DNA of 64,000 nt from a virus (IMGVR_UViG_3300046462_000479), one strand, 5' to 3'; positions 412-21,562 are shown, counted from the first letter of the stretch. Program-made: numbers and translations. Notes: generated by a model from the letters alone, not told the origin.

Positions 412-1104
412 TCAGACAGTGTGACATGTCACACTCAAAAGCTGATGGCCGAGGAGTTCCGTGTAGGCGGGCGGGATCGCTTCCTTCAACGCCTGCCAAT
501 CAGAGGACCAGTCGATCCCCAAAGCCTCGCGCGCCAGCTGGACTTTCTCCCGCCGGGAAAACTGGCCCTTCCCGACACCGTACTTACGGCGCGCATAAGC
601 CGGATGATGCCCGTAAATCCCGATCGTCTGCTCCCGCCAACACCCGGCACACACCGGCACGAACGGCATCCAGTTCGCCTCAAACAACCGATGCCTACGC
701 AACATATACCGGCCCGCCGGGGCTGAACACCCAGCGTAAGTGACGCCCAACCCGAACATGCTCCCACACAACAACACCGGATCATGGAGTGGAGCACCCT
801 CCACGTTCTCGATCACGAACGGCAAACCCGACGCGGTTAATTTCTCCCGGACCTGCTCGATCAGCCTCGGATGGAAACGATTCGCCCCCGGCAGAATCCT
901 CGTGGACGAGTACGCCTGACATGGAGGCGAAGCGTGCACCGCATCGAACCCGTCCAACGGGAAGGTGAGCGCGTCCGCACATATGAACTCGAACGGATAG
1001 TCCGGCTGCGGCACGATGTCCACGCCCACCACCTCGAAGCCTGCACGCGCATACCCGACGGCCGCGCCACCGAGCCCGCAAAACAGGTCAATTAACTTGA
1101 CCAA
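412..1104 (-). CDS. DNA (cytosine-5)-methyltransferase (Dcm-like), TTG start
   Basis: Motif I FCGLGG, catalytic PPCQ, ENV motif; 230 aa. Confidence 0.85.
   Translation of the reverse strand: MVKLIDLFCGLGGAAVGYARAGFEVVGVDIVPQPDYPFEFICADALTFPLDGFDAVHASPPCQAYSSTRILPGANRFHPRLIEQVREKLTASGLPFVIENVEGAPLHDPVLLCGSMFGLGVTYAGCSAPAGRYMLRRHRLFEANWMPFVPVCAGCWREQTIGIYGHHPAYARRKYGVGKGQFSRREKVQLAREALGIDWSSDWQALKEAIPPAYTELLGHQLLSVTCHTV
419..434. repeat. 16-bp palindrome GTGTGACATGTCACAC
   Basis: Perfect match. Confidence 0.9.
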
Positions 1105-1126
1105 GGGTACCCCCAGGGTGTATACT
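1097..1126 (+). promoter_or_regulatory. promoter TTGACC-N18-TATACT with TG upstream of the -10 and a C-rich spacer; divergent from the methyltransferase gene
   Basis: Consensus hexamers; SD GGAGG 10 nt downstream; one of a family of four. Confidence 0.55.
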
Positions 1127-1174
1127 TTAGTTAATGGAGGAGATGGATTCCTCCCCTAGCGAAAGGAGCGGGAC

Positions 1175-1372
1175 ATGCCGCTCGCAATCGTCCTGAAGTC
1201 CAAGCAGGGCTTCAGCGACTACATCCTCCCCCGCCGGTACGACACCCTCGGGGACGCGCTCGATGCGCGAGCAAAGAAGCGCGAGATGAACGGCGAGTCG
1301 ATGTTCCAGACGCGAGAGATCGCCGAGGTCATCGACACCAAGCGCACCACCAAGATCGTGCGCTTCCTCTAG
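1175..1372 (+). CDS. hypothetical protein (65 aa)
   Basis: ORF track; SD AAAGGAGCGGG upstream. Confidence 0.55.
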   Translation: MPLAIVLKSKQGFSDYILPRRYDTLGDALDARAKKREMNGESMFQTREIAEVIDTKRTTKIVRFL

Positions 1373-1384
1373 CAGACTGAGCCA

Positions 1385-1400
1385 GTGTGACATGTCACAC
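1385..1400. repeat. 16-bp palindrome
   Basis: Perfect match. Confidence 0.9.
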
Positions 1401-1436
1401 TGGCTCGATGTGCTAACGGGAAGGAGGAACAAGCAC

Positions 1437-1553
1437 ATGGCAGCATGGCACGAATACCCCAAGCACCAGCGGCGCAACAACCTGATGTGGACCCTGTTCC
1501 TCATCGGCGAAATCGTCGCCTTCCTCGTCATCCTCTACACCCAATCCCACTAA
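1437..1553 (+). CDS. 38-aa membrane peptide (MAAWHEYPKHQRRNNLMWTLFLIGEIVAFLVILYTQSH)
   Basis: RBS GGAAGGAGGA; transmembrane segment; not in the ORF track. Confidence 0.35.
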   Translation: MAAWHEYPKHQRRNNLMWTLFLIGEIVAFLVILYTQSH

Positions 1554-1567
1554 AGGAGTCCACCCAC

Positions 1568-1807
1568 ATGGACACCAGCTACCCGCTCACCAAGCTCGCG
1601 GGTGGGGCCGCAATCGTCGCCCACAAATGGAACGACCCCTGGGGCACCTGCCCCTGCGGACACCTCGTCTGGGTCGGCGACGACGACACCCACACCTGCG
1701 GCGGATGCGGCACCACGCGCCCCGTCATCCACATCGACGGTGCCCGCACCTACGGGCCGTTCCAAGACTTGACCCACAAGCTCCACGAACGCGCCGTCAC
1801 CGGCTAA
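1568..1807 (+). CDS. hypothetical Cys/His-rich (Zn-binding-like) protein, 79 aa
   Basis: Internal ATG of track ORF 1445..1807, preceded by SD AAGGAG; CPCGH...HTCGGCG. Confidence 0.5.
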   Translation: MDTSYPLTKLAGGAAIVAHKWNDPWGTCPCGHLVWVGDDDTHTCGGCGTTRPVIHIDGARTYGPFQDLTHKLHERAVTG

Positions 1808-1824
1808 CTCCCTTCCCAGAAGGT

Positions 1825-1840
1825 GTGTGACATGTCACAC
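1825..1840. repeat. 16-bp palindrome (20-bp extended GTGTGTGACATGTCACACAC)
   Basis: Perfect match. Confidence 0.9.
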
Positions 1841-1868
1841 ACCCTGGGGGAAAGGAGGTGGCACCCAT

Positions 1869-2123
1869 ATGGCCCGCTTCGCAATCGAAGACCCGCACGA
1901 TCACACGCCGATCGGCACCAGCGGCGACACCGAGTCGCCCTTCCGCGAACTCACGTTCACGGAACTCACCAGCCAGGACAACTTCGGCGACTACTTCCGC
2001 TTCAGCGTCACCGTGCGCCTGAAGCGCGACGAAGCGCTACTGCTCGCACGCAAGCTGGAGTTCTTCATCCAGGAGGCAACACAGCGCGACTGCCGCGTCT
2101 ACCTCGGCGTCAAGAACTTCTAG
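1869..2123 (+). CDS. hypothetical protein (84 aa)
   Basis: ATG after SD GGAAAGGAGGTGG; the track ORF starts inside the palindrome. Confidence 0.55.
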   Translation: MARFAIEDPHDHTPIGTSGDTESPFRELTFTELTSQDNFGDYFRFSVTVRLKRDEALLLARKLEFFIQEATQRDCRVYLGVKNF

Positions 2124-2141
2124 CCTTTCTGACTCCACCCA

Positions 2142-2157
2142 GTGTGACTTGTCACGC
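2142..2157. repeat. palindrome variant GTGTGACTTGTCACGC
   Basis: Two mismatches. Confidence 0.8.
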
Positions 2158-2191
2158 TGGAGTGGGGTGAGAAAGGAGGTGGCCCACCCAC

Positions 2192-2404
2192 ATGAGCTAT
2201 CCAACCACCCACGTAGAGCTGACCACGCTCGACCTGCTCAACCTGAAAAACCTGGTCCGGTACCGCATCACCAGGCTGCAACAGGACAAGCACGACCACC
2301 CGGACCTCGCGCACGTGTTCGAGGAACAGATCCAGGTGCACGAGCAGACGTTCGCACGGCTCGACCGCGCGCACATCGACATGTACCCCGCCCGCGCCGC
2401 CTAG
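2192..2404 (+). CDS. hypothetical protein (70 aa)
   Basis: ORF track; SD GAGAAAGGAGGTGG. Confidence 0.55.
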   Translation: MSYPTTHVELTTLDLLNLKNLVRYRITRLQQDKHDHPDLAHVFEEQIQVHEQTFARLDRAHIDMYPARAA

Positions 2405-2416
2405 CTGACCACACCA

Positions 2417-2432
2417 GCGTGACATGTCACAC
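2417..2432. repeat. palindrome variant GCGTGACATGTCACAC
   Basis: One mismatch. Confidence 0.85.
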
Positions 2433-2512
2433 GCTGGTGGGGTGAGAAAGGAGGTGAAATATCAAGACACAGACCGTGTTGCGATAATCACAACATGCAA
2501 GGAGAAGCAACC

Positions 2513-2788
2513 ATGGCAACGGCCGAGCCCACACTCGCCGACGACCAGATCCTGCTCAACGTGCCACGCACCTCAGCAGACCTGGTCCGCACCACCTGGG
2601 ACTACGAAGTCCGGGTCATCTACCTGCCCGACCTGTCCGCACCCGAATGCGCCTGGGTGTCCATCCTCGACCGCAAAGGCAACATGATCGGCGAACCGAT
2701 CACCCTCACGGTCGAGGACGGAATCGAAGCCTTCAAGAACCCGCGCAAGTTCAGCAACGAGCTGAACGACTTCCTCGCACGGCACTAA
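2513..2788 (+). CDS. hypothetical protein (91 aa)
   Basis: ATG after AAGGAGAAGCAACC; protein-like composition. Confidence 0.55.
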   Translation: MATAEPTLADDQILLNVPRTSADLVRTTWDYEVRVIYLPDLSAPECAWVSILDRKGNMIGEPITLTVEDGIEAFKNPRKFSNELNDFLARH

Positions 2789-2816
2789 CCAACCTCAGTT
2801 GTCAAAGACCAAGGGA

Positions 2817-2832
2817 GCGTGACATGTCACGC
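2817..2832. repeat. palindrome variant GCGTGACATGTCACGC (symmetric)
   Basis: Perfect dyad. Confidence 0.85.
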
Positions 2833-2863
2833 TCCCAAACCTCTACCCACGCAGAGGAGCACC

Positions 2864-3115
2864 ATGGAACGAAACGAACTGCTGCAAGAAATCGAGCGGC
2901 GCTCCACCACCCTCGAACTCGGTGTTCCGATCGCCAACGGCGACGGCACCTTCACCCGGTACAGCCTGCTCGGAGCGGTCGGCCAGAAACTCGCCGCCGC
3001 CGCCGAAAACGCGAAGGAAGAACCGGTCGTCTGTCCCCACTGTGGCGCGGTTAACCGCGCCACCGAGGACCAGGGACTCGTCTACTGCCTGGAGTGCAAC
3101 TACATCGTCGACTAG
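2864..3115 (+). CDS. Zn-ribbon protein (CPHCG...CLECN), 83 aa
   Basis: Two CxxC pairs. Confidence 0.55.
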   Translation: MERNELLQEIERRSTTLELGVPIANGDGTFTRYSLLGAVGQKLAAAAENAKEEPVVCPHCGAVNRATEDQGLVYCLECNYIVD

Positions 3116-3285
3116 CCCGCCCACACGTGCTTTACTATAGGACACGCAAGGGGTGACGCCGTAGCTGAAAATCGCTGCAAACAGGAGCAAATCATACCAC
3201 CCCCAGCCCCAAAAAACCAGTGCCTCTGGCCCCCGTTCCGCCTGAACGGGGGCGAAGCGCATGTCTGCGCCGAGAAGAAACCCCA

Positions 3286-3301
3286 GTGTGACATGTCACA
3301 C
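3286..3301. repeat. 16-bp palindrome
   Basis: Perfect match. Confidence 0.9.
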
Positions 3302-3318
3302 TCCCAAAAGAAGGAGAA

Positions 3319-3675
3319 ATGAGGACCATCTACGCCTACAGCAGCGAGAGAGAAGTCGAGCTGGGCCGCGACCCACACGCCGTCCGCATCATGATCAAAG
3401 ACAGCGACTACAACGCGTTCTCACGCCAACGCGTAGCCGAGAACCAGTACCTCGGCCGCTACCAGATCGGCGAATACATGACCGTCTACGACTACCGGCA
3501 CAAGCGCACCTACAAGCTCGCCAACGCACCCTGCGGACTCGGCTGCCGCTGCGCAGCCGTAGCCATCCAAGTCTGCAGCGAATGCGAACGCGAAGACGGA
3601 ATCATGACCGGAGAAGGATTCTGTGTCACCTGCTACTCCATCCTCAACGGCGAAACCGGAGAAGATCAGCAATGA
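3319..3675 (+). CDS. Cys-rich hypothetical protein (118 aa)
   Basis: ORF track; SD AGAAGGAGAAATG. Confidence 0.55.
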   Translation: MRTIYAYSSEREVELGRDPHAVRIMIKDSDYNAFSRQRVAENQYLGRYQIGEYMTVYDYRHKRTYKLANAPCGLGCRCAAVAIQVCSECEREDGIMTGEGFCVTCYSILNGETGEDQQ

Positions 3676-4007
3676 GCGACCTCACAACTCGCCTCATCGA
3701 ACTCGTCGACGGCGTCCACCTCGCCAGCGAATACGACGACGTAATCGCCAAAGAGCCTGGAACCGCGGCCCTGTTCATCCCTGGCAAAGCCGAAGGAGCA
3801 ATCCCGAACGGCACACGAATCGTCAAGTGCAACACCCAAACAAGCGACTCGTTCTTCGACGGAGACGCGGGAACCGTAAAGGCCAGCCATCTATCCGATG
3901 GGCTGCCAGGAATCCCGCCGTCACCATTCTTCTACTTCGTCGAGTTCGACAAGAAGCCAGGACTGCCTGTCGCGATCTTTGGTAACCGGATCACCACGGG
4001 CATCTGA
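3672..4007 (+). CDS. hypothetical protein (111 aa)
   Basis: ATGA overlap with the upstream stop; the upstream part of track ORF 3261..4007 has an Arg-rich artefactual composition. Confidence 0.5.
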   Translation: MSDLTTRLIELVDGVHLASEYDDVIAKEPGTAALFIPGKAEGAIPNGTRIVKCNTQTSDSFFDGDAGTVKASHLSDGLPGIPPSPFFYFVEFDKKPGLPVAIFGNRITTGI

Positions 4008-4008
4008 A

Positions 4009-4209
4009 ATGAAAGCTGAGCTGCTCACCAAACAAGGCGGCCACGTCGCCTCAATCGAAATGCCGTTCTTCATGACCCCACCCCAAGTGGTGGTATGGGG
4101 TGAACGCATCTTCGTCCACGACGACAGGCCGTTCGTCGAGTCAGAACACGGACACACCTACTACGAAGCATTCGCATGGGCCTACGCAGAACCGATCGGC
4201 GCAACATGA
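4009..4209 (+). CDS. hypothetical protein (66 aa)
   Basis: Internal ATG of the track ORF. Confidence 0.5.
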   Translation: MKAELLTKQGGHVASIEMPFFMTPPQVVVWGERIFVHDDRPFVESEHGHTYYEAFAWAYAEPIGAT

Positions 4210-4301
4210 GCCGCGAAATGAAAGGCATCGTCGCGATCGTCGCCTACGGCATCGTTTTGTGCACCGTGATGCTGTTAAACCACTACGGATATGGAGTGTG
4301 A
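4206..4301 (+). CDS. 31-aa membrane peptide (MSREMKGIVAIVAYGIVLCTVMLLNHYGYGV)
   Basis: ATGA overlap; hydrophobic. Confidence 0.3.
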   Translation: MSREMKGIVAIVAYGIVLCTVMLLNHYGYGV

Positions 4302-4551
4302 CATGTCACACACAGCAGTCGAAACAGTCGGAGAAAGGATCAGACGTCTCCGAACAGAACTCGGCATGAGCCAACGCGACCTCGCAGAACCCGAATACAC
4401 GTTCGCGTACATCAGCCATCTGGAAGCAGGCAACCGGACGGCCAGCCTCACCGCCCTCGTCAAATTCGCGGAAAAGCTCAACACCAGCGCCCTCTATCTC
4501 CTCACTGGCGACGAGCATCGCGACTGCCCATTCTGCGGACGGCACGAGTGA
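4291..4551 (+). CDS. XRE-family helix-turn-helix DNA-binding protein (Cro/CI-like); an alternative start is the ATG at 4303, at the palindrome centre
   Basis: RIRRLRTELGMSQRDLAE...ISHLEAGNR HTH signature. Confidence 0.8.
   Translation: MECDMSHTAVETVGERIRRLRTELGMSQRDLAEPEYTFAYISHLEAGNRTASLTALVKFAEKLNTSALYLLTGDEHRDCPFCGRHE
4296..4311. repeat. 16-bp palindrome; its central ATG is a candidate start codon
   Basis: Perfect match; GGAG 7 nt upstream. Confidence 0.9.
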
Positions 4552-4709
4552 TGCTAGTCGCAATCAGCAGCCTGCAAGCGCTCGTCCGCAACATGCACAA
4601 CCTCGAACGGCAAGGCATGAACGTCCCCGCCAGCATGTACGGGCGGGCACACACCCTCCTCAACGCGCTCAACCACCACATCGAAAGAGAAAGGAAATCC
4701 CATGAGTAA
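4551..4709 (+). CDS. hypothetical 52-aa protein
   Basis: TGATG overlap with the upstream stop; not in the track. Confidence 0.3.
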   Translation: MLVAISSLQALVRNMHNLERQGMNVPASMYGRAHTLLNALNHHIERERKSHE

Positions 4710-4846
4710 AAGAATGCTTGAACTCACGATCCATTACGCGACCGCGTACCGCTGGAACCATGCGTGACCCAGCACGCATCCCCTTGACCCGTGGTACTGG
4801 GAAGAGGACGAGTGGCTGCGACGCATCGACCTATTCAGGAGGGAAC

Positions 4847-5224
4847 ATGGAACTCAAAGTGGGCGACAAGATCACCCGGTACATGAGCGACGAACAGATA
4901 CCCATCCCAGCAGAAGTGTTTGCTGTCGACGACGACTACGTCTACCTCAGCAACGGGGTAATGACCCGCAAAGATCAATGCTGGAAGTTCGACAAAACCT
5001 GCGGGTATGAAGTCGACGAAGAGCTGGGGCTAGGACGGATGGAGGACGGCACCGTTCTGACCAGCAGCTACATCCCCGTCAAGGAATACGGGCCGCCAGA
5101 ACTACTCACTCGCGACCAGCTGATCGCGCTGAAACTCGCCGCCGTCGCCAAACGCGATGGCGTGTCGAAAGAAACGGCGCTCAGCCTCATTTTGGGCTTC
5201 ACAGATAGGCCGGAAGGAGTGTGA
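4847..5224 (+). CDS. hypothetical protein (125 aa)
   Basis: Internal ATG after AGGAGGGAAC; the upstream part of the track ORF is not protein-like. Confidence 0.5.
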   Translation: MELKVGDKITRYMSDEQIPIPAEVFAVDDDYVYLSNGVMTRKDQCWKFDKTCGYEVDEELGLGRMEDGTVLTSSYIPVKEYGPPELLTRDQLIALKLAAVAKRDGVSKETALSLILGFTDRPEGV

Positions 5225-5234
5225 CATGTCACGC
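5219..5234. repeat. palindrome variant GTGTGACATGTCACGC; its central ATG is the start of the next gene
   Basis: One mismatch. Confidence 0.85.
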
Positions 5235-5633
5235 CTAGCGCTTCCCTGCATCGCCTGCGGCCGCGAACTACACAACGTCGACGACATGGCTGGCAATCAG
5301 CCGTACAACGGCACCGCGTTCACGACGCATGGCCACTACGGGTCCACGATCTACGACCCGATGGACGGCCACTACCTCGAAATCAACGTATGTGACGCCT
5401 GCCTCGCACTCCATCCGGAACGGGCACTCGAAGGCCGCGACCGCAGACCCGTCATGGAAGACGGGGTCATCGTCCGATTCGAGGACGTGGAATGGCAGGA
5501 GATGCCGTGGATGCCAGATCCCGAGTCGATCGACTATGCGCTCAAGGTCACGCGCAAGGAGAGCGGCATCGACGACCTCAATCCTCTTCGCCAGATTCCA
5601 GTTCCGGAGTCTGATCCCCCAGCTGCAGCCTGA
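5226..5633 (+). CDS. Cys-rich (CIACG...CDAC) hypothetical protein, 135 aa
   Basis: ATG inside the palindrome; SD GGAAGGAG. Confidence 0.55.
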   Translation: MSRLALPCIACGRELHNVDDMAGNQPYNGTAFTTHGHYGSTIYDPMDGHYLEINVCDACLALHPERALEGRDRRPVMEDGVIVRFEDVEWQEMPWMPDPESIDYALKVTRKESGIDDLNPLRQIPVPESDPPAAA

Positions 5634-6045
5634 ACTTCACCGCGTCCGCGTTCTGGCCCGCGAACTCGATCCGGGTCGGGATGTGGTATTTCTCGGGATG
5701 GCGGCGTTCAAGCAGCCATTCCAGATGTTTGGTGTCGAACTCCTGGACCACGCCGACCAGCTGGCCGCGCTGAAAGATCGGCCGCTCGTTCGGTTCTAGC
5801 GCACGCCGGACGTTCTCGTATTCGAGAGCGTCGTCGATCATTTTTTGCGCGGCGTCGTACAAGGCCGAGAATCGTGGCGACGCTTTCCGTCGTGACTCGA
5901 CCGCGTTCGGGTGTACGCCAGCAGCCCTGGCTGCTTTGCCGATGATCGCGTACTCGTTCACGAGGGCCTCCAGGAAATCTTTCTCCCATGCTTCCGGAGG
6001 CCCTTCGTCCTCGAACAGATTTACTTCGTCTTCGGAGTGTGACAT
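5578..6045 (-). CDS. HTH protein resembling the terminase small subunit N-terminal HTH
   Basis: AIIGKAARAAGVHPNAVESRRK...ALYDAA motif; start ATG at the palindrome centre. Confidence 0.5.
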   Translation of the reverse strand: MSHSEDEVNLFEDEGPPEAWEKDFLEALVNEYAIIGKAARAAGVHPNAVESRRKASPRFSALYDAAQKMIDDALEYENVRRALEPNERPIFQRGQLVGVVQEFDTKHLEWLLERRHPEKYHIPTRIEFAGQNADAVKFRLQLGDQTPELESGEED

Positions 6046-6052
6046 GTCACAC
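6037..6052. repeat. 16-bp palindrome (supplies the ATG of the minus-strand gene)
   Basis: Perfect match. Confidence 0.9.
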
Positions 6053-6937
6053 TACTTCGGTGCGGTATCCGTTGCCGTCCCGGTAGAGGGCGTGCCGTTG
6101 TGTGCAGCGGCCGCAAACGATGTAGCCGAGCGGCCTTTCTGGTCCGTCAACGGGTACGACCTGGACCGGATATTCGCGGCCGAGCGTGTCGATCCTGGTT
6201 TCCGTGGAAGGCCTTTCCACGTCTCGTTCGATCTGGGCTCGGACAGCCTCGACTGTTTCGGGCGCAGGCTGGGCTGTTTCTTCTTGGCGCATCCTGTTCC
6301 GGATGGAGCCGACGGTCGGGTGCGACACTCCGCAAACCTCTGCGATGCGACGGTCCGAGCGCGACCAGTCGCGTTGTAGCTCTTTGCGTACGAGCGACTG
6401 TTTCTGCTCTTTGGTCAGTTGGCGTCGGTTCGCGTTCAGCGCGATCGACAGTTCGTATTCGCCTGCCTGGTCGAGGTCGGACACGAACACGACCGGGATC
6501 TCGGTCAAGCCCAACAGTTTGCTGGCCATCAGCCGGTGACGGCCGTCGATCAGCATGTGGCGGCCGATCACGATCGGCACCCTGACGCCTTCGTCCTCGA
6601 TGCTGTTGATCAGCGCCCGCTGTTCTTCTGCGCTTAGGTCAGGCAGCGGCCCCGATTGCAGCTCGATCTCGCTCCTCAGTTCCGCCAGGAGCGACGAGGC
6701 CGAGGATGGCGAGAGCCCTAGCTCGCTGGCGAGGGTAGTCAGGTTGTAGCCATCGCTCATCTCGTCCGCTAAGAGCAGTTTGATCGCCTGCGCCCTCGGG
6801 GACAACGCCTCCAAGTCCACCGTCCGGTAGTTCGTCGAAAACGTAGTCGGGGGTTCGGGAGCCGTTTCTTCCGAGAACTCGTCTGGGGCCGACGTCGACG
6901 GCTCGTTGGCTACATATCCATCGTCCGTACTGCTCAA
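6047..6937 (-). CDS. ParB-like nuclease-domain protein with C-terminal HTH (TTG start)
   Basis: PIVIGRHMLIDGRHRLMASKLLG ParB/Srx core; HTH VSHPTVGSIRNR. Confidence 0.7.
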   Translation of the reverse strand: MSSTDDGYVANEPSTSAPDEFSEETAPEPPTTFSTNYRTVDLEALSPRAQAIKLLLADEMSDGYNLTTLASELGLSPSSASSLLAELRSEIELQSGPLPDLSAEEQRALINSIEDEGVRVPIVIGRHMLIDGRHRLMASKLLGLTEIPVVFVSDLDQAGEYELSIALNANRRQLTKEQKQSLVRKELQRDWSRSDRRIAEVCGVSHPTVGSIRNRMRQEETAQPAPETVEAVRAQIERDVERPSTETRIDTLGREYPVQVVPVDGPERPLGYIVCGRCTQRHALYRDGNGYRTEVV

Positions 6938-7184: not shown

Positions 7185-7222
7185 GCTCGTCCGCGAGTGT
7201 AGTACAGGCGACCGGACAGACC

Positions 7223-7252
7223 TTGATCTACCCCACCCCAGTCATGTATACT
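7223..7252 (+). promoter_or_regulatory. promoter TTGATC-N18-TATACT (TG-extended, C-rich spacer)
   Basis: Same family as 1097, 20082 and 21533. Confidence 0.5.
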
Positions 7253-7329
7253 AATGTAATGGAGGGGAGGTACGGGCTGTCGGTCAGCGGCCCGGAGAGC
7301 GGCTGCAACCCGCAACTCCCCTCCTCACA

Positions 7330-7345
7330 GTGTGACTTGTCACAC
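7330..7345. repeat. palindrome variant GTGTGACTTGTCACAC (centre TT); lies in the 5' leader, ~+75 from the promoter
   Basis: 33-bp block identical to 11411-11444. Confidence 0.85.
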
Positions 7346-7364
7346 TCCTAGCGGAAGGAACCTG

Positions 7365-7571
7365 ATGCTTGCACCAGCAGAAGCGATCGGCGTCGAGCAG
7401 ATCATCCCCTCGACCGGACCGCACGAGCAGATCCTGGTCGGCCACGAGCAGGTGGTGGCACTGCACTTCTTCGAGGCGATCGACTATGACCCGGAGTACG
7501 GTCCGGGCGCGAAGGTGTACCGGCCGGTAGGGCTGGCGGACGCAGCCACGATCAGAGGATGGTTGGCGTGA
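7365..7571 (+). CDS. hypothetical protein (68 aa)
   Basis: ATG after GGAAGGAACC. Confidence 0.5.
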   Translation: MLAPAEAIGVEQIIPSTGPHEQILVGHEQVVALHFFEAIDYDPEYGPGAKVYRPVGLADAATIRGWLA

Positions 7572-8036: not shown

Positions 8037-8038
8037 CA

Positions 8039-9039: not shown

Positions 9040-9040
9040 A

Positions 9041-13655: not shown

Positions 13656-13677
13656 TAAGAAATGATTTCAAATTTTG

Positions 13678-14301: not shown

Positions 14302-14311
14302 CATGTCACAC
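14296..14311. repeat. 16-bp palindrome
   Basis: Perfect match. Confidence 0.9.
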
Positions 14312-14323
14312 AGGAGGTGACTG

Positions 14324-14713: not shown

Positions 14714-15093
14714 GGGTCCGCTGGTTCGGCGAGTCGTGGCGTGCCCCGATCTGCGAGCCGGAGTATCAAGTCATCGTTCCGGTCGGGACGAAGTGTTTGG
14801 AGTGCACGAAGCCGATCAAAGCGTCGAGCCAGGGGCTTATCACGTCCTGCAGTCCGAGCATCTGGGGGTCGTGGATGATGCAGGTCGACGACGTTGACGT
14901 GACGGTGTGTTCCTACCATCTGCATTGTTGGTTGAAAGAGGTTGTGGGTGGGGAGATGAGCGCGAAGATTCTGGCTCGGATGGACTACCGGGTCACCGAC
15001 GACGAGATCGTGCCGGTCCAGTCTCCTGGGGCGGAAACAGTGGAACCTGGAAGGGGGTGGGGTCGTGAACGAGACGACGGAGACGATTCCTGA
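14695..15093 (+). CDS. Cys-rich hypothetical protein (132 aa)
   Basis: ORF track. Confidence 0.5.
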   Translation: MGEPVVRVRWFGESWRAPICEPEYQVIVPVGTKCLECTKPIKASSQGLITSCSPSIWGSWMMQVDDVDVTVCSYHLHCWLKEVVGGEMSAKILARMDYRVTDDEIVPVQSPGAETVEPGRGWGRERDDGDDS

Positions 15094-15304
15094 TTCGTAT
15101 CAGGCGTATGTTGAGGCTCGTCGGAAGGCTGCGGCGGAGAACCCGGAGCCTGACCCGTTTGTGACTGTGCGGTTGATGCGCGGCGACGTGAACATGTTGT
15201 TGGATCTGATGGCGGCACATGTGCGTGCGTATGGTCCGAAGACGCAGGAGGCGGGTGTGCGTTGCGCGAACGCGCTGGTTGCGTCTCTTCGTGTTGAGCC
15301 GTGA
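15065..15304 (+). CDS. hypothetical protein (79 aa)
   Basis: ORF track. Confidence 0.45.
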   Translation: MNETTETIPDSYQAYVEARRKAAAENPEPDPFVTVRLMRGDVNMLLDLMAAHVRAYGPKTQEAGVRCANALVASLRVEP

Positions 15305-15489
15305 GGTTTGTGGAGGACGGTGCGGTGATCGTTGTCGCCGTCTGGTGCATGTTCGGGTTCTTTTGGTTCCGTTACAGGAAGAGGAGGCAGCATCCTGACG
15401 CTTTAGAGCACATCCACGAGCTGGAAGAGCAGAACGTGGAGATCGACGAGTTCATCCACAAGATTCAAGACCGGGAGGTTCGGAAATGA
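15301..15489 (+). CDS. small membrane/coiled-coil protein (62 aa), translationally coupled to the SPFH gene
   Basis: Transmembrane segment then an acidic helix. Confidence 0.5.
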   Translation: MRFVEDGAVIVVAVWCMFGFFWFRYRKRRQHPDALEHIHELEEQNVEIDEFIHKIQDREVRK

Positions 15490-16412
15490 CTTGGATAATC
15501 CTGACGATCTTGTTTGCGATCGTCGGCGGCATCTCGTTGCTGGTGTGGTTGTTCGGAGACAAAGCTCCGGAGGGGTCGGATGAGATCAGTCCGAAGGCGT
15601 GGGGTGGGATCGCGACCGTCACCATCGGCGTGATCTGGCTGGTGATGACACTGTTTATGTCGGCGACACAGATCAGCGCCGGTCATGTCGGCGTGAAGTA
15701 TCAGTTCGGGAAGATCGTGGGGACGGTCCCTTCGGGCCTTCATGTTGTGGCACCGTGGATCAACGTGGTGTCGGCAAACACGCAGGTCCAGTCGCATACG
15801 TTCGACAACCTGACGTCGTTCTCGAAGGAGACGCAGGACGTGAACGTGACCGCGACCCTGAACTACAGCGTGAACCCGTCCGACGTGAAGAACTTGTACA
15901 CGACTGTCGGGTCGGACTGGTTCGACAAGCTGGTCGCTACCAGGGTGAACCAGTTCTTCAAGGACGAGACGGTTAAGTTTACTGCCGTAGAAATTGCTCC
16001 ACACCGCGACCAGATCCGCAAGGATGTGCGTTCTGTTCTGCGGTCTGCGTTGGCGCCGTACTCGGTGAACGTGGAGGATCTGCTGATCGACAACATTTCG
16101 TTTAGTCCTGCGTTCACGAACGCGATCCAGGACAAGCAGATCGCGACCCAGCAGGCGTTGGCTGCCCAGAACAGGGTGGCGACGGCGAAGTATAAGGCGC
16201 AGCAGATCATCGAGCAGGCGCAGGGACAGGCGAAGGCGAACCTGTTGAAGCGTCAGACGTTGACGCCGTTGCTAGTGGAGCAGAACGCGATCGACAAGCT
16301 GAACCCGAACGTGAGCGTGATCGTGGTCCCGTCGGGCGCGAACTTCATCCTGCCTGGCCTTGCTGCTGCTGCTGCAGCGTCGACGCCGACGGCTCCGACG
16401 AAGAAGCCGTAG
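15486..16412 (+). CDS. SPFH/band-7 (prohibitin/HflC-like) membrane protein
   Basis: N-terminal transmembrane segment; AGHVGVKYQFGKIVG...GLHVVAPWINVV core; C-terminal coiled coil. Confidence 0.8.
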   Translation: MTWIILTILFAIVGGISLLVWLFGDKAPEGSDEISPKAWGGIATVTIGVIWLVMTLFMSATQISAGHVGVKYQFGKIVGTVPSGLHVVAPWINVVSANTQVQSHTFDNLTSFSKETQDVNVTATLNYSVNPSDVKNLYTTVGSDWFDKLVATRVNQFFKDETVKFTAVEIAPHRDQIRKDVRSVLRSALAPYSVNVEDLLIDNISFSPAFTNAIQDKQIATQQALAAQNRVATAKYKAQQIIEQAQGQAKANLLKRQTLTPLLVEQNAIDKLNPNVSVIVVPSGANFILPGLAAAAAASTPTAPTKKP

Positions 16413-16417
16413 TCAAC

Positions 16418-16570
16418 ATGAGCGGGACAGTAGTTAAGCCGTGTACGTGTGCGTCGACACAGCAAGACAAGCTGTACGGACGCGGGCTGCGTCTTCACAA
16501 CCGAATGGTGAAGGATCGCCAAGAGAAGGGATCCCGCTGCACGGTCTGCGGTAAGGAGAAAACTCCCTAG
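16418..16570 (+). CDS. Zn-ribbon peptide (~50 aa; CTC...CTVCG), unannotated
   Basis: ATG after the stop of the SPFH gene. Confidence 0.4.
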   Translation: MSGTVVKPCTCASTQQDKLYGRGLRLHNRMVKDRQEKGSRCTVCGKEKTP

Positions 16571-16616
16571 TGGGACGTGTTCTTCTACGGGCCCAAGCTA
16601 TTCGAGAGGAGGACGC

Positions 16617-16814
16617 GTGATCAGCCGTCTGGTTGAGCGGGTGTTGAGTAGGTTCAATAACGAGGACCGTGAGCTGATCCTGCGCTGGCGGATCTGGAAG
16701 ATGCACTGGCTCCCGTACCGGACGGCCGAATGGATCAAGAACGATCAAGACGAGATGGTTCTCGGCCCGTGGAAATGGCATCTGCCGGACAAGATCACGA
16801 AGAAGTGGCCGTGA
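16617..16814 (+). CDS. hypothetical Trp-rich protein (65 aa)
   Basis: ORF track. Confidence 0.45.
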   Translation: MISRLVERVLSRFNNEDRELILRWRIWKMHWLPYRTAEWIKNDQDEMVLGPWKWHLPDKITKKWP

Positions 16815-17014
16815 ACGCGTGGCTGTGGAACGTGTGGTTGTACGTGTCCCCGTTCGTGTTTGTCGCGTTCGGTTTGCGAGCGGGCCGCTACTGGTGGCAG
16901 GAGGGTTGGCGGCTTAACCGGCCGATGTGTTTCGTGTACGCGTTCGATGCGATCGCGTTCACTACGATGGGCCTGGTTCTCGTGGTGTTGTTGGCTGCAG
17001 GCCAGTTTCCGTAG
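16811..17014 (+). CDS. membrane protein (67 aa), GTG start
   Basis: Two transmembrane segments. Confidence 0.5.
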   Translation: MNAWLWNVWLYVSPFVFVAFGLRAGRYWWQEGWRLNRPMCFVYAFDAIAFTTMGLVLVVLLAAGQFP

Positions 17015-17354
17015 GACTGAGCGGACGGGACGGTCTTCCGGTTTTCTTTTTTTTTAGAGCAGACGCAACACATGCGGACGAAAGATCGGAAGAGCCGAGC
17101 CCCACCCCCCTACCCCCCTCCCCAAACGGGGAGAAGAGATCGGAGGGTGGGGCCATGCGTCCGATGAGTCGGAGTCGCGTCGCCCAGCCGGTTCCCACGC
17201 GGCTCTAGCACCAAACTGAAGGTCGATCGACCGGCACCCTCTAACGGTCGGCACCGGGATCTGCTCACTACCAGAGGGCGATTAACCTGCTCGCTGTGGT
17301 AGTGTTCTCCCTGCTCTGCGTGACGGCGAGCAATGTACCACACAACTGACTGAG

Positions 17355-17385
17355 GGGCCCCTCGCCGGAGGGGCCCTTTCTTTTG
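17355..17385 (+). terminator. rho-independent terminator (9-bp stem GGGCCCCTC/GAGGGGCCC, loop GCCG, then TTTCTTTT)
   Basis: Perfect hairpin plus U-tract. Confidence 0.6.
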
Positions 17386-17401
17386 GTGTGACATGTCACA
17401 C
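17386..17401. repeat. 16-bp palindrome
   Basis: Perfect match. Confidence 0.9.
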
Positions 17402-17405
17402 TGGC

Positions 17406-17433
17406 TTGACTTCTCTCGGCAGAGGTGTAGGCT
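17406..17433 (+). promoter_or_regulatory. promoter TTGACT-N16-TAGGCT (actinobacterial TANNNT -10)
   Basis: Hexamers. Confidence 0.45.
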
Positions 17434-17483
17434 CCGATTATTAACCGCGCGCAGGCGCGGGATCCTTCCCGAGAGGAGCCGAG

Positions 17484-18116
17484 TTGATCCTGGACGTCGA
17501 GATTAAGGGCGTCACCTTCCGTGACGTCACAAAAAAGGCGGACGGCAAGCAGATCCGCATCTTCGAGGTCGAAGACCAGAACGGCATCAAGTGGACGACC
17601 AGCCGCCAGGACATCGCGAACGAGGCGTTCCGTCGGGTCGGCCAGATGGCACAGATCCAAGGCCGTGAGGAACAGAACGGCGCCTACCTGAACCGCTACC
17701 TGGACATGGTGTCTGAGCCGGGCGTCCTGACTCCGCCTCCGTCGCAGGAGTTCCCCATCCCCGGCGTGGTGCAGAGCGCCCTCGATGCATCGCTCCCGCG
17801 CGCTCCAATGGCTCCTACGCCTCCGCCCGCGCCCATTCCTCCTTCGGCACCAGCGCAGCCGACGATCCAGCCGAGCGGGCCGACAGAACACGACTGGCAG
17901 ATCTGGCGGCAGGTCGCAGCCAAGGTGTCCGCCACCGTGTCAACCACTGCCCCCGAGTTCTGGAGCAACCTCGACGACCTGGTCCGCTACTTCGCCTACG
18001 GCACCAAGCCCTCCTACGTTCCCGGAGACGCTCCCCGCTTCATCCCGGAGGGTGCGATCCAGGAGAGCAACGCCGAGGGACCGCCGCCGTACACGGACGA
18101 TGATATTCCGTTCTAA
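17484..18116 (+). CDS. SSB-like protein: noncanonical N-terminal domain, Pro-rich linker, C-terminal DDDIPF acidic tip (TTG start)
   Basis: Terminal DDDIPF is the SSB C-terminal tail signature. Confidence 0.6.
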   Translation: MILDVEIKGVTFRDVTKKADGKQIRIFEVEDQNGIKWTTSRQDIANEAFRRVGQMAQIQGREEQNGAYLNRYLDMVSEPGVLTPPPSQEFPIPGVVQSALDASLPRAPMAPTPPPAPIPPSAPAQPTIQPSGPTEHDWQIWRQVAAKVSATVSTTAPEFWSNLDDLVRYFAYGTKPSYVPGDAPRFIPEGAIQESNAEGPPPYTDDDIPF

Positions 18117-18461
18117 GTGGAGGGGATGGATCAGCTAAGTCTCTTGCCCGATCCAAGTCGGCCAATTAAGGGACGTCACCATACACATGCTAGGGACACA
18201 GAAGAATCTGCGGCTCAAGCTGCTGCACCGAGAGCCGGGACGGCCCGAGCGCGAGTTTTGGAACATCTTCGGCAAGCGGGTTCGTACGGAGCAACTGACT
18301 TCGAGTTGAACGAGATGTTGCTACCAGGGCGTCGCTCGGTGAGTGCGGGAACCAGACGAGCGGAGTTGATTCGCGACGGATGGCCAATCATCGACTCAAA
18401 GCGGCGTCGAGAAACTGATACCGGTACGGCTGCGATCGTATGGGTGCTCAGTGCGCCTTAG
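18117..18461 (+). CDS. hypothetical protein (114 aa)
   Basis: ORF track. Confidence 0.45.
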   Translation: MEGMDQLSLLPDPSRPIKGRHHTHARDTEESAAQAAAPRAGTARARVLEHLRQAGSYGATDFELNEMLLPGRRSVSAGTRRAELIRDGWPIIDSKRRRETDTGTAAIVWVLSAP

Positions 18462-19290
18462 CGGATGGCATGTTCCGATCGAGCATCTGTCCGCGAGTGC
18501 GATCGGGATGCTGGTCCAGTGTCCTGAGCAGTTCAGGCTCAGAAGGGTGTTGAAGATCCCGGAGTCGATGGGCGTGGACAGGTTCGTCGGCATCGTCGAC
18601 CACGGCACGCACGCGGAGAACTTCAGGCAGAAGATCGCGACCGACCAGGACCTGCAGCAGCAGACGATGTGGGAGATCTTCGACAACACCTGGGACCAGA
18701 CGATCCTGCAAGAAGGCGAGCCGGAGTGGAGCAGTCCGGTCGAGCAGACGAAGACGCTGGGTCAGCTGATGGTGGACACCTACCACGCTCAGGTGTCGCC
18801 GACGGTGCATCCGATCAAGGTGGAGGAACGGTTCGAGCAGACCTTCAAGAACATGCCGATCCCGATCGTCGGCTACCCGGACGTCGAGACTCGGTCGCAG
18901 ATCATCGAACGGAAAACGTCGGCGTCGAAGCTATCGAAGCCGAAGTCGAAGTGGGTGGTGCAGGGCCGGATCTACAGCATGGTGTACGCGAAGCCGGTCG
19001 AGTACCACATCATCACGAAACAGAAGACTCCGCAGGTCGTGACGGCAGAGACAGCACCTGCAATGTGTTTACACCCTGAGCACGCAGACTCGACGTTGCA
19101 GGTGATCGAGCAGGCGTTGTTCAGCCTGAACGACTACTGGACACGCTACGGTCCCGACCATCCCTGGCCGACCACCGGCCTCTACCACGACTGGCTGTGC
19201 AACTACTGCTTTGCCGGTCCCAGCTACGGCGGCTTCTGTGTCGCCTGGAAAGGACAGACGAATGAGCAAGATCGCAAGCACGAAGTGTGA
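18451..19290 (+). CDS. Cas4/RecB-family PD-(D/E)xK exonuclease with a 4-Cys cluster
   Basis: GYPDVE...IERK; N-terminal QCPEQF plus C-terminal CNYCFAGPSYGGFC. Confidence 0.65.
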   Translation: MRLSGWHVPIEHLSASAIGMLVQCPEQFRLRRVLKIPESMGVDRFVGIVDHGTHAENFRQKIATDQDLQQQTMWEIFDNTWDQTILQEGEPEWSSPVEQTKTLGQLMVDTYHAQVSPTVHPIKVEERFEQTFKNMPIPIVGYPDVETRSQIIERKTSASKLSKPKSKWVVQGRIYSMVYAKPVEYHIITKQKTPQVVTAETAPAMCLHPEHADSTLQVIEQALFSLNDYWTRYGPDHPWPTTGLYHDWLCNYCFAGPSYGGFCVAWKGQTNEQDRKHEV

Positions 19291-19462
19291 CAAGTGCGGC
19301 AACCTGATCGAGGACGGCACCGGAGGTGAGCTGGTCTTCACTACCAAGACGAACCGGCAGACAGCCGACCTGCACCAGACCTGTGCTGACGGGCTCGGTG
19401 TCGACTTCAAGACGCAGAAGAAGCGCGGCCGCAAGCCGAAGGAACCAGTGACAGTGGTGTGA
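19262..19462 (+). CDS. Zn-ribbon + AT-hook-like small protein (66 aa)
   Basis: CDKCG...; KKRGRKPKEP. Confidence 0.45.
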   Translation: MSKIASTKCDKCGNLIEDGTGGELVFTTKTNRQTADLHQTCADGLGVDFKTQKKRGRKPKEPVTVV

Positions 19463-20085
19463 CCAAGTTCCCCACTGAAAGCAGGGACGTTCAGGGCCTA
19501 GAAGGGGACGAGTACCCGGACTTCAAAGTCGGGCCCGTCTGTGCCGTGCCTGGCTGCAGGCGGCTGACCGACCACGCACACCACCTGTTCAGTAGGGGAA
19601 TGATGGGCGGCGCTTTCAACTGGGTGCTGGTCCCTGACGGCACCGAGATCGGCAACAAGGCCCCGCTCTGCTACCGCCACCACGAACAGGTCACGAACAA
19701 CGAGATCGGCATCACCTACCAAGGGGGCCGCTTCTTCTGGGAGGGCGAGCCACTGTCATGGCAACCACCCAAGAAGGGCGGCCCCGAGGAGGTGTCAGTA
19801 ACAGAGCAGGAGGAACGCCCGGTCTGTCCCGGCTGTGGCCGCAGGATGCCAAAGCCTCGGATCGACACACCCGTTGAGGAGAAGAAGCGCCGCAAAACGT
19901 GGGCGGTGTCTGTCCCGGCAACAGTGGAAGAGGACGGGGCGGACGTGCTGGACGCCCTGTTGGAGTCCGCCCGCGAGAAGATGGACGCGGCTGGACTCGA
20001 CTGGGGTGAGGGCCAGAAGTACTTCGTGTTGTCTACCGCGCTCGGACTGTTCGTGATGCACGCGGAACAAGTCCTCAGCAATTGA
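19459..20085 (+). CDS. HNH endonuclease
   Basis: CAVPGCRRLTDHAHHL...LCYRHH. Confidence 0.75.
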   Translation: MTKFPTESRDVQGLEGDEYPDFKVGPVCAVPGCRRLTDHAHHLFSRGMMGGAFNWVLVPDGTEIGNKAPLCYRHHEQVTNNEIGITYQGGRFFWEGEPLSWQPPKKGGPEEVSVTEQEERPVCPGCGRRMPKPRIDTPVEEKKRRKTWAVSVPATVEEDGADVLDALLESAREKMDAAGLDWGEGQKYFVLSTALGLFVMHAEQVLSN

Positions 20086-20111
20086 ACACCCCCACTGTAC
20101 TGTGGTATAAT
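20082..20111 (+). promoter_or_regulatory. promoter TTGAAC-N18-TATAAT with extended-10 TGgTATAAT
   Basis: Near-perfect consensus. Confidence 0.6.
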
Positions 20112-20132
20112 AGGTTAACCGAGGGGAGGGGC

Positions 20133-20324
20133 ATGGCATCGCGCATACGTTGTGAACGATGCGGCTTCATTGTTGAGAGAAAGGAGCGGATACGGTCAAA
20201 ACACACGAACGCCTACTACTGCAAAGACCTCCACCGATGCGACAGACGCAGACGAGGCGACGTCGGCCTCGAAGACATCTTCTCGCTGACCGAGCAATTA
20301 AGGAGCGACGTTGGAAAACTCTGA
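20133..20324 (+). CDS. Zn-binding small protein (63 aa)
   Basis: CERCG...YYCKDLHRC. Confidence 0.5.
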   Translation: MASRIRCERCGFIVERKERIRSKHTNAYYCKDLHRCDRRRRGDVGLEDIFSLTEQLRSDVGKL

Positions 20325-20592
20325 AGAAAAGCAACGCAAGGCTATCGCCGAGATCCAGCTCCTGTACGAGAAGATCAGCCGCGTCCAGTACGAACTGACC
20401 TGGTTCCCGTTCAAGGTCGGACAGCTAGGAGCGATCGGTCAGCTAGGCCCGCCAGAGACAGCCCGTGCGATGATCGAGTCGATGAGAGCCGACATTAATG
20501 ACCTCATGGACGCGACCGAGGCCTGCGCTCTGCAAATGGGACAGCTGTTAGCCAACGTCGAACAAGCACTAGACCGACAAGAAGAAGTGTGA
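20311..20592 (+). CDS. hypothetical coiled-coil protein (93 aa)
   Basis: ORF track. Confidence 0.5.
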   Translation: MENSEEKQRKAIAEIQLLYEKISRVQYELTWFPFKVGQLGAIGQLGPPETARAMIESMRADINDLMDATEACALQMGQLLANVEQALDRQEEV

Positions 20593-20602
20593 CATGTCAC
20601 AC
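20587..20602. repeat. 16-bp palindrome; its central ATG is the start of the next gene
   Basis: Perfect match. Confidence 0.9.
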
Positions 20603-20911
20603 TCTCCGCGCATCTATATCAGTGGGCCGATCAAAGACAACATCGACTACGAAGAAGACTTCGAACAAGCCAAGGCCACCCTAATAATGCAGGGATGGCA
20701 TCCAGTTAGTCCTGCTGATCTACGTTCAGATCATTGGAGCTACGGCGACTACATGCGAGCAGATATTTTGCTTTTGCTTACATGCGAGTCGATCTACATG
20801 CTCAGTGGTTGGAAGAATTCCAATGGTGCCCGTCTCGAATACGAGATAGCAAAGATGTGCGAGATGACGATAGTGTATGAAGCACTAACCGATTACGAGG
20901 AGGAAACATGA
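20594..20911 (+). CDS. DUF4406-like / nucleoside 2-deoxyribosyltransferase-like protein
   Basis: YISGPI...CESIYMLSGWKNSNGARLEYEIA. Confidence 0.6.
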   Translation: MSHSPRIYISGPIKDNIDYEEDFEQAKATLIMQGWHPVSPADLRSDHWSYGDYMRADILLLLTCESIYMLSGWKNSNGARLEYEIAKMCEMTIVYEALTDYEEET

Positions 20912-21111
20912 AGCTGTACGAAATTGCTGTGCTGAAGAACGAGAAGACGGACAAGGACGGCGAAGTAGTCGACGCGGCCGACATTGTCGTTCCGATCACG
21001 CCGGTACTGGCACGAGACGACGCACAAGCGCAGCTGCTCGCAGCACGTGCCATCCCGGCAGACGAGATCGACAACCTGGACAGACTCGTTGTCGTGGTGC
21101 GCCCTTTCTGA
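20908..21111 (+). CDS. hypothetical protein (67 aa)
   Basis: ATGA overlap. Confidence 0.5.
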   Translation: MKLYEIAVLKNEKTDKDGEVVDAADIVVPITPVLARDDAQAQLLAARAIPADEIDNLDRLVVVVRPF

Positions 21112-21321
21112 CCCAGGATTGGACAGAAGAGCTAGAGGACGTCCACGAACATCAGGAGCATCTCGATCTAGTCGGTCGCGGTGGCGCTAGGTGGTTCGGC
21201 ACCCATCCCGCCAGCTACACGACGACGGGCGGAAACGTGCTTGCTGCCGGTACGACCGGGAACGTGTTGTGGTCGCAGGTGCCTACGACAGCTACGTATA
21301 CGTCGGCCAGCACGGTTCTGA

Positions 21322-21537
21322 ATGGCTGACGAGATCAAGTACACGAAGCGGAAGACCGTGAGGGTGAGCGGTGCTCTCAGTCGCGAGCTGGGAGAGATCC
21401 AGGTGTACGAGGGGGACGCCAAGTTGCTGGAATGGATCGCCGAATTCCTTGGCTGTAGCAAGGCCGAGGCTGTACGTTCTGCTATCCGCTCAATGGCTGC
21501 CCAGTTGACAATGATTGACAAGCGCTCGCCCCCTTGA
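21322..21537 (+). CDS. ribbon-helix-helix-like small regulator (71 aa)
   Basis: KRKTVRVSGALSREL...SKAEAVRSAIRSMAAQL. Confidence 0.5.
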   Translation: MADEIKYTKRKTVRVSGALSRELGEIQVYEGDAKLLEWIAEFLGCSKAEAVRSAIRSMAAQLTMIDKRSPP

Positions 21538-21562
21538 CCCACCCACGTGTACAATGGTATAC
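21533..21562 (+). promoter_or_regulatory. promoter TTGACC-N18-TATACT (TGg-extended), preceded by two further TTGACA hexamers at ~21504 and ~21514
   Basis: Consensus hexamers. Confidence 0.55.

Follow-up and report, generated by a model that had tools for sequence, protein, structure and literature searches.

We have analysed a window of 64,000 nucleotides (nt), that is, the whole stretch of DNA presented here, from the virus IMGVR_UViG_3300046462_000479, and have concentrated on four sites, named S1 to S4, at which -35 and -10 hexamers are found 18 base pairs (bp) apart. These four sites should be working promoters for the host RNA polymerase with its primary sigma factor (sigma-70/SigA/HrdB type), and we put the probability of this reading, which is drawn from sequence, at roughly 0.8. 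As sigma-70-type phage promoters they are an ordinary kind of feature; the phage lineage that carries them is new and uncultured. A preliminary description of the same DNA had already proposed the sites as entry points for the host enzyme; its observation is real and its core interpretation is probably right, while several of its details are wrong. The proposal fits the position and the orientation of the sites, their 18-bp spacing, and the presence of conserved hexamers at corresponding positions of related phages.

Sequence, placement and conservation of the probable promoter family

All four sites are present with the sequences that had been reported, at 1097, 7223, 20082 and 21534; only the last had been misplaced, by one position, to 21533. 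The -35 hexamers match TTGACA in 5, 4, 4 and 5 of the six bases (TTGACC, TTGATC, TTGAAC and TTGACC, respectively), and the -10 hexamers, TATACT at three sites and TATAAT at one, match TATAAT in 5–6 of six. The spacer is exactly 18 bp long in all four sites, in a fifth family member outside the window (S5), and in eleven positional equivalents of S3, S4 and S5. The wording "near-identical" is correct for the hexamers only, as the spacers have just 8–11 of 18 bases in common among the four. Similarly, a TG upstream of the -10 had been ascribed to every site. It takes the canonical -15/-14 position (TGn) at 20082 and 21534, while at 1097 and 7223 it abuts the hexamer; the extended -10 (TGn) is not a family property. 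The C-rich spacers, and a GGAGG located 9–13 nt 3' of the -10, were found as described. The claim of three tandem -35 elements before 21534 did not survive inspection: the extra TTGACA pair lies in the codons of an open reading frame (ORF) and is absent from the related locus L022, and neither hexamer has a -10 partner at 16–19 bp. These two hexamers are probably incidental.

The placement of the sites lifts their case, since they are non-coding, co-oriented with genes and set in AT-richer surroundings. Non-coding DNA makes up 10% of the window, and all four cores are located there, with only 0–8 of the 30 core bases overlapping ORFs. All of them are on the plus strand in the orientation of the next gene, and the GC content around them is 46–53%, compared with 62% overall. 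In addition, S1 and S2 stand exactly at switches from leftward to rightward genes. For the pattern TTGANC-N18-TATAMT with at most one mismatch, we have found 4 matches against 0.25 expected from shuffles, and none of 100 shuffles reached 4. An extended family pattern with up to three mismatches returned the same 4 sites and nothing further, against 0.11 expected. Since both patterns were composed after the sites had been seen, these statistics overstate the case.

Conservation was followed in loci of related phages, which were fetched with the DUF6551 protein and the terminase as anchors and belong to phages at 56–78% protein identity. The large terminase gene diverges from S5, with its start codon 20 nt away, and in this terminase-proximal gap six relatives (67–77% terminase identity) have kept a -35/-10 pair exactly 18 bp apart. 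Their -35 hexamers are TTGAAA, TAGACA, TTGCGT, TTGATT, TTGCGC and TTGTGT, and their -10 is TATACT in five cases and TATGAT in one; the relatives diverge in their leaders and in the 3' half of the spacer. When aligned with L003, the non-coding identity is limited to CTTGA-A-ACCCCCCT and TATACT, and the remaining spacer diverges. The equivalents of S4 are TTGACC-N18-TATACT in L022 and TTAGCC-N18-TATAAT in L043/L050, where the -35 again overlaps the stop codon of a ribbon-helix-helix-like ORF and stands upstream of a LuxR-type ORF. Those of S3, upstream of a Zn-ribbon ORF, are TTGCTC-N18-TAGATT in L023 and TTGTGC-N18-TAGATT in L025. Hexamers and spacing that are kept while the flanks drift, as in these comparisons for S3, S4 and S5, are the pattern that selection on a promoter would produce.

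One set of similarities invites another reading. The terminase-proximal promoter of L061, whose gene context differs, has nearly the same sequence as the core and start region of S1 (GGGTGTATACTTTAGTTA), and the spacers of S3, S4 and S5 have 11–14 of 18 bases in common. This might reflect a repeated cassette with another role, whose resemblance to a promoter would be secondary: it might bind a protein or serve in recombination, or it might be a mobile promoter-leader module that recent duplication has preserved. We regard this as highly improbable, because the conservation across relatives is concentrated in the hexamers and the spacing, not in the whole cassette, and because every copy faces genes, two of them exactly where a strand switch requires a promoter.

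On the promoter reading, and following the established behaviour of the sigma-70 family, sigma region 4 would read TTGAC and region 2 would read TATAMT, 18 bp apart; an A/T-rich stretch of 6–9 nt follows the -10, and transcription would start about 7 nt downstream of it. S5 would start the rightward non-structural operon, S1 and S2 would restart rightward transcription past leftward gene islands, and S3 and S4 would serve as internal promoters for two small putative regulators, giving short leaders with a true ribosome site. When 37 ORFs were compared with Pfam or PHROGs, none was recognised as a phage RNA polymerase or sigma factor. The sites had also been called strong and early, and had been taken to define at least six transcription units. 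These terms go beyond the observed sequences and should be read as expectations; moreover, the whole genome holds at least eight such -35/-10 sites, two of them outside the window.

The immediate gene context differs from site to site. S1 diverges from a C5-cytosine methylase gene (412–1104, minus strand), whose TTG start (1104–1102) overlaps the S1 -35. The spacer C-run of S1 (1109–1113) is the complement of GGGGG, 5 nt upstream of this TTG, where the ribosome site of the methylase is expected, and the C-run may therefore double as the complement of that site. The same role for the C-run, as ribosome site of a divergent gene, was rejected for S2–S5. We have also observed a perfect inverted repeat, GGTCAA-gttaa-TTGACC (1086–1104), spanning the S1 -35. 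S2 sits in a 427-nt divergent gap between a ParB-like gene (6047–6937, minus strand) and a gene at 7365–7571 (plus strand).

S3 and S4 are followed by two small ORFs that the metagenome gene callers skipped and that are real genes. The Zn-ribbon-like ORF behind S3 is conserved in four relatives. The GerE/LuxR-type helix-turn-helix ORF behind S4 has homologues in L022 and L043/L050 and weak similarity to sigma-70 region 4; its start is more likely GTG 21586, 5 nt 3' of GGAGG, than ATG 21574. Upstream of it, ORF 21322–21537 encodes a ribbon-helix-helix-like protein of 71 amino acids (aa). Both small ORFs lie directly downstream of their promoters in a low-GC island (56% at 20–22 kb).

Leaders, predicted 5' stems and the weighing of alternatives

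The preliminary description had read GGAGG as a Shine-Dalgarno (SD) sequence within about 12 nt of the promoter, and had hence taken all leaders to be very short. This is right for S3 (ATG 20133) and S4 (GTG 21586, or ATG 21574). It fails for S1 and S2, where no credible start codon follows GGAGG and both metagenome gene callers start the genes at 1175 and 7365, which gives leaders of ~41 nt and ~106 nt, respectively. At S1, S2 and S5, the predicted folds suggest that GGAGG is not a ribosome site but a purine-rich 5' arm paired with a downstream CCUCC. The gene behind S1 starts at ATG 1175 with a ribosome site of its own, AAAGGAG. The S2 leader has a predicted folding energy of -49.9 kcal/mol (z = -2.5), and its stem is followed on the 3' side by a copy of a repeated palindrome (7330–7345), a ribosome site and ATG 7365. 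For the S5 leader z is -4.5.

Stems are predicted 1–5 nt from the assumed 5' end at S1, S2, S5 and the site labelled S6. A 5' stem is also predicted in six of six terminase-proximal equivalents, each built from a sequence of its own, such as GUGUGGGU/ACCCACAC in L004 and UAGGAGG/CCUCCUA in L061. When we count helices of at least 6 bp starting no more than 5 nt from the assumed 5' end, a criterion picked after the folds had been seen, they occur in 8 of 11 leaders and in 17.8% of random 130-nt segments (p ~1e-4). According to these models, the conserved polypurine run should serve chiefly as the 5' arm of a 5'-terminal stem. The example of other, known leaders suggests that this stem could protect the mRNA from 5'-end-dependent RNases, to which we give slightly less than even odds. 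Primary papers on such 5' mRNA stabilisers are listed among the references of a review (PMC3997798).

Two side observations concern S5. Its -10 lies inside an 8-bp palindrome, AGTATACT, and its leader is arranged in the order 5' hairpin, 17-bp GC hairpin, and then the repeated palindrome.

Of 16 family and related promoters, 11 have an ATG or GTG 4–8 nt downstream of the -10. If these codons formed the 5' end, the transcripts would be leaderless, and a short leader peptide translated across the hairpin would control the downstream gene. The short ORFs in question (20 aa at S1, 30 aa at S2 and 31 aa at S5) do end near the next ribosome site; leaderless mRNAs make up ~24% of the transcripts of M. 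smegmatis (PMC6448022), and the promoters PL1 and PR2 of Cluster O phages are predicted to be leaderless (PMC4351075). On the other hand, the peptides have nothing in common beyond ME/VE, the ORFs are short and not conserved, an A/T-rich stretch running into a G-run yields ATG or GTG by composition alone, and the L061, L022 and L043 equivalents are without such a codon. Leaderless control of this kind therefore appears improbable to us, though as an added layer it is compatible with the promoter reading.

A more far-reaching idea is that the conserved unit, which hops between contexts, is a promoter-leader cassette, a portable module in which initiation would be coupled to mRNA stability and to translation. 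Its parts would be TTGAC, a pyrimidine-rich half-spacer at the fixed 18 bp, TATACT with an A/T-rich start, and a polypurine 5' arm that often opens with ATG or GTG and closes the 5' stem. Such coupling would follow if some factor, of phage or host, recognised the half-spacer, or if ribosomes started at the ATG/GTG of a leaderless transcript and made a leader peptide across the stem. We consider the module, with this set of parts, unlikely.

We then have to weigh what speaks against promoters for the host polymerase. An unbiased generic scan (TTGACA/TATAAT matched in at least 10 of 12 bases, spacer 16–19) gives 3 distinct sites against 1.1 expected. S1 and S2 are without positional equivalents among the fetched loci. 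The upstream half of the spacer is rich in pyrimidines (74% C+T over 16 promoters, counted by hand), which is beyond the standard model. The short leaders of S1 and S6 have weak fold z-scores, -0.7 and -1.8, and the 5'-stem statistic rests on an assumed start site. In mycobacteria, the SigA promoters of the bacterium itself show no -35 consensus (PMC6448022). Finally, the only pointers to the host are distant matches to actinobacterial phages and one 5.6-kb contig binned as Actinomycetota, the sole return of a host scan run twice over 185,579 genomes.

The generic scan, which at a loose threshold finds 4 sites against 3.9, is only mildly enriched and would by itself be compatible with chance matches in 64 kb of DNA. 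Chance is nevertheless extremely improbable as an explanation, given the excess for the family pattern, the intergenic and co-oriented position of every site, and the positions conserved in relatives.

The pyrimidine-rich segment could instead point to factor-dependent promoters, middle or regulated ones, at which a phage protein reads the segment just 3' of the -35 and switches the family jointly. Spacer positions 2–5 are ACCC in 8 of 9 family members, ACCCCCCT is kept between the window phage and L003 while the remaining spacer diverges, and S4 drives a helix-turn-helix protein that weakly resembles sigma-70 region 4. This small LuxR/sigma-region-4-like protein, or the ribbon-helix-helix-like protein upstream of it, would be the candidate factor. 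We judge such a switch rather improbable. The hexamers and the spacing are already near consensus, so an activator is unneeded; in S1 the C-run is out of register, and the equivalents in L061 and L059 lack it; and neither L024 nor L025 has the LuxR ORF at its locus. Moreover, a C-rich spacer and GGAGG acting as an inverted-repeat operator around the -10 was rejected, as the best 7-nt complementarity is 5.25, compared with 5.01 in 4000 geometry-matched controls, and thus no significant inverted repeat marks a dimer operator.

Another candidate role for the C-run was pairing with the ribosome site in read-through RNA, the idea being that only promoter-initiated transcripts are translated. It was also rejected: the folds are no more stable than those of shuffles (z = +0.2, +0.8, +0.9 and -0.4 for S2, S3, S4 and S5, respectively).

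As for the host, it is most likely an actinobacterium, as judged from the protein matches. The mycobacterial or streptomycete sigma-A holoenzyme of the preliminary description supposes more than the pointers given above establish. In M. smegmatis, SigA prefers TANNNT as its -10 (PMC6448022). Because mycobacterial SigA promoters lack a -35 consensus, the term host-type rests on the general sigma-70 model, and the strong TTGAC boxes would be a phage-style feature, not a copy of typical host promoters.

Further probable promoters, repeated palindromes and the phage genome

The coordinates of the features are collected in Table 1. The contig L034 (77,466 nt) extends the window leftward, with window position = L034 position - 8826.

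Table 1 Probable promoters, predicted leader structures, ORFs and other features. Positions refer to the window unless L034 is given.
Feature	Position	Strand	Remarks
Promoter S1	1097–1126	+	-35 TTGACC 1097–1102; 18-bp spacer; -10 TATACT 1121–1126
Promoter S2	7223–7252	+	TTGATC-N18-TATACT
Promoter S3	20082–20111	+	TTGAAC-N18-TATAAT; canonical TGn; -35 overlaps TGA stop of gene 19459–20085
Promoter S4	21534–21563	+	TTGACC-N18-TATACT; canonical TGn; -35 overlaps TGA stop of ORF 21322–21537
Promoter S5, fifth family member	L034 2449		TTGACA-N18(CACCCCCCTGTACTGTAG)-TATACT; outside the window, ~6.4 kb to the left
Second-class promoter	2–30	+	TTGACA-N17-TAGTGT; in a 592-nt divergent gap beginning outside the window
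Second-class promoter	L034 8351	-	TTGACT-N18-TAGTGT; drives a 314-aa leftward gene; divergent gap common with site 2–30
Terminator-promoter junction	17352–17433	+	Strong intrinsic terminator 17352–17379; palindrome 17386–17401; promoter TTGACT-N16-TAGGCT 17406–17433; upstream of gene 17484–18116
Two TTGACA hexamers	21503–21508, 21514–21519	+	In codons of ORF 21322–21537
5'-proximal hairpin of S1	1136–1154	+	Predicted fold; GGAGGAG / CUCCUCC, 7 bp
Leader structure of S2	7261–7325	+	Predicted; 9-bp closing stem GGAGGGGAG (7261–7269) / CUCCCCUCC (7317–7325) around two inner hairpins
Zn-ribbon-like ORF, 63 aa	20133–20324	+	S3-driven; ribosome site GGAGG, ATG 20133, leader ~15 nt
GerE/LuxR-type helix-turn-helix ORF, 96 aa	21574–21864	+	S4-driven; PF00196, E = 9.7e-8
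Repeated palindrome, examples	419–434, 1385–1400, 7330–7345, 17386–17401, 21846–21861		
Mu-type portal, protease fusion, major capsid protein		-	Capsid: weak, sub-threshold Pfam match
Tape-measure-sized ORF	Within window		Typical phage protein
Ku, SPFH protein, PD-(D/E)XK nuclease, DUF6551 protein, AAA ATPase		+	

Two further promoters that had been proposed together with the family, at 2–30 and 17406, were likewise confirmed in sequence. The former is backed by its location in a divergent gap, and the latter by a terminator-then-promoter junction kept in relatives: in L022, L023 and L044, the homologous gene (210 aa) is likewise preceded by a terminator and then a promoter, which reads TTGACT-N16-TAGTGT in L022 and TTGATC-N17-TAGCTT in L023. 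At this position of L044 the -10 TAGGCT is kept and no convincing -35 was found. Together with the minus-strand site at L034 8351, these make three further sites with TAGNNT -10 boxes, and they seem to form a second class within this kind of promoter. At site 2–30, ATG 38 stands exactly 7 nt after the -10 and opens a 34-aa ORF (38–142), which may be translated from a leaderless mRNA and is the best leaderless candidate by its sequence.

Leftward transcription is less visible. The main divergent control region, L034 2429–2838, is located outside the window, and no sigma-70-like promoter for the leftward structural operon (>40 kb) is visible in it. None was found for the leftward terminase, ParB-like and methylase genes, either.

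A 16-bp palindrome, GTGTGACATGTCACAC, is present in 26 copies (at most two mismatches) between positions 232 and 59255 of the window, against 0.15 expected, and most copies of the rightward arm lie ~10–100 nt upstream of a plus-strand start codon. Relatives have variants of it, namely GTAAC-nn-GTTAC, GTTAC-nn-GTAAC, CGTCAG-nnn-CTGACG and CCGGAC-nn-GTCCGG, which points to a putative sequence-specific binder that changes between lineages. As for the LuxR-type ORF in this role, the L024 and L025 loci, from which it is missing, still bear palindromes; as for the ribbon-helix-helix protein, its beta-strand does not track the palindrome type.

The window represents ~64 kb of a ~77.5-kb uncultured soil phage that is distantly related to phages of actinobacteria. 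A megablast search against 50,697 deposited phage records returned zero matches, and the best protein matches, at 38–47% identity, are to phages of Arthrobacter, Mycobacterium/Mycobacteroides and Gordonia. Several metagenome assemblies contain DNA identical to the window, and the sample of one relative is labelled farmland. Searches of the viral collection with the 512-aa ORF and the DUF6551 protein returned no close relative, and in terminase relatives at ~50% identity the divergent gap is not syntenic.

Two arms meet at 28.6 kb: the rightward non-structural genes, which begin at ~1.1 kb, and the leftward structural genes, which reach past 64 kb. We have found no tRNA genes in the window, and no Rfam family scored above its own threshold anywhere in it. 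Inside the rightward arm there is a leftward two-gene island (5578–6937, minus strand), for which no promoter was recognised. It encodes a ParB-like/helix-turn-helix protein (296 aa) and a 155-aa protein, which matches small terminase subunit families and is far from the large terminase gene. Within the structural arm, a 1513-aa ORF (40953–45494, minus strand) is without PHROG match and encodes the largest protein of the window without assignment. Next to the portal gene, a 734-aa protein (57027–59231, minus strand) has a His_Phos_1 domain fused to an XkdF-type S78 prohead protease domain; in its relatives a NUDIX domain is additionally present. The terminase and portal genes are separated by ~9 kb (L026 4194–13046; window 62007–64000 plus L026 7191–12733), an interval with about five small ORFs followed by a methyltransferase/glycosyltransferase block (L026 8075–12733).

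Significance and comparison with known systems

The lineage is widespread in soil and without a cultured member, with at least 200 related proteins in metagenomes and contigs of up to 73–79 kb. For this lineage the present analysis provides a usable transcription map, rescues two small regulator genes from omission by gene callers, and revises the interpretation of GGAGG, which had been taken for a ribosome site, at three of five promoters. The promoters are as expected for a phage relying on host RNA polymerase, so they are a useful annotation and no surprise. From the 18-bp spacing, the pyrimidine-rich half-spacer and the 5' stems, short and strong promoter-leader parts could be developed for use in high-GC Gram-positive bacteria.

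Early promoters for host RNA polymerase have been proven experimentally in several phages, such as T7 (A1–A3), T5, lambda (PL/PR) and mycobacteriophage L5 (Pleft). As in these phages, several near-consensus -35/-10 promoters head the non-structural arm of the present phage, where they would capture the host holoenzyme on entry. The E. coli phages differ in using 17-bp spacers, compared with 18 bp here, and to our knowledge no conserved pyrimidine-rich spacer segment has been described for any of these early promoters.

The leaders can be compared with known 5' mRNA stabilisers, namely the ompA leader stem-loop, the STAB-SD of B. thuringiensis cryIIIA, and the polypurine stabiliser of phage SP82. 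The similarity lies in a stem only a few nt from the 5' end, or a polypurine run that looks like a ribosome site far from the start codon, opening a phage early transcript. The difference is that the polypurine run here is predicted to be base-paired, not free to bind 16S rRNA.

Repeated operator-like palindromes are present in other actinobacterial phages, as the conserved inverted repeats of phiC31 and the "stoperators" of Cluster A. These repeats resemble those of the present phage in the many copies of one short site downstream of promoters and between early genes, and in their lineage-specific variants. The likeness concerns only the companion palindromes, which here do not overlap the -35/-10 cores; a repressor or integrase was not identified in the present phage, which is a further difference.

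The closest analogue is provided by the Cluster O mycobacteriophages, i.e., Corndog and its relatives (PMC4351075). They have 8–9 strongly predicted SigA-like -35/-10 promoters, some at divergent AT-rich gaps, and more than 30 copies of a 17-bp palindrome (PMC4351075). Promoters are predictions in both cases, and several differences are evident. The palindrome is GTGTGACATGTCACAC here and TGTTCGGNNNCCGAACA in Cluster O; the spacer is fixed at 18 bp here; and the main promoters here have predicted structured leaders, while PL1 and PR2 of Corndog are predicted to be leaderless. The resemblance is one of layout alone, as there is no megablast match and the best proteins, at <48% identity, match other actinobacterial phages. 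This common layout comprises genomes of ~70–77 kb with comparable sets of predicted promoters, many short perfect palindromes between the genes of the non-structural arm, genes for Ku-like and ParB-like proteins and for an AAA ATPase, and methyl-/glycosyltransferase genes beside a large terminase gene that lies away from its usual position.

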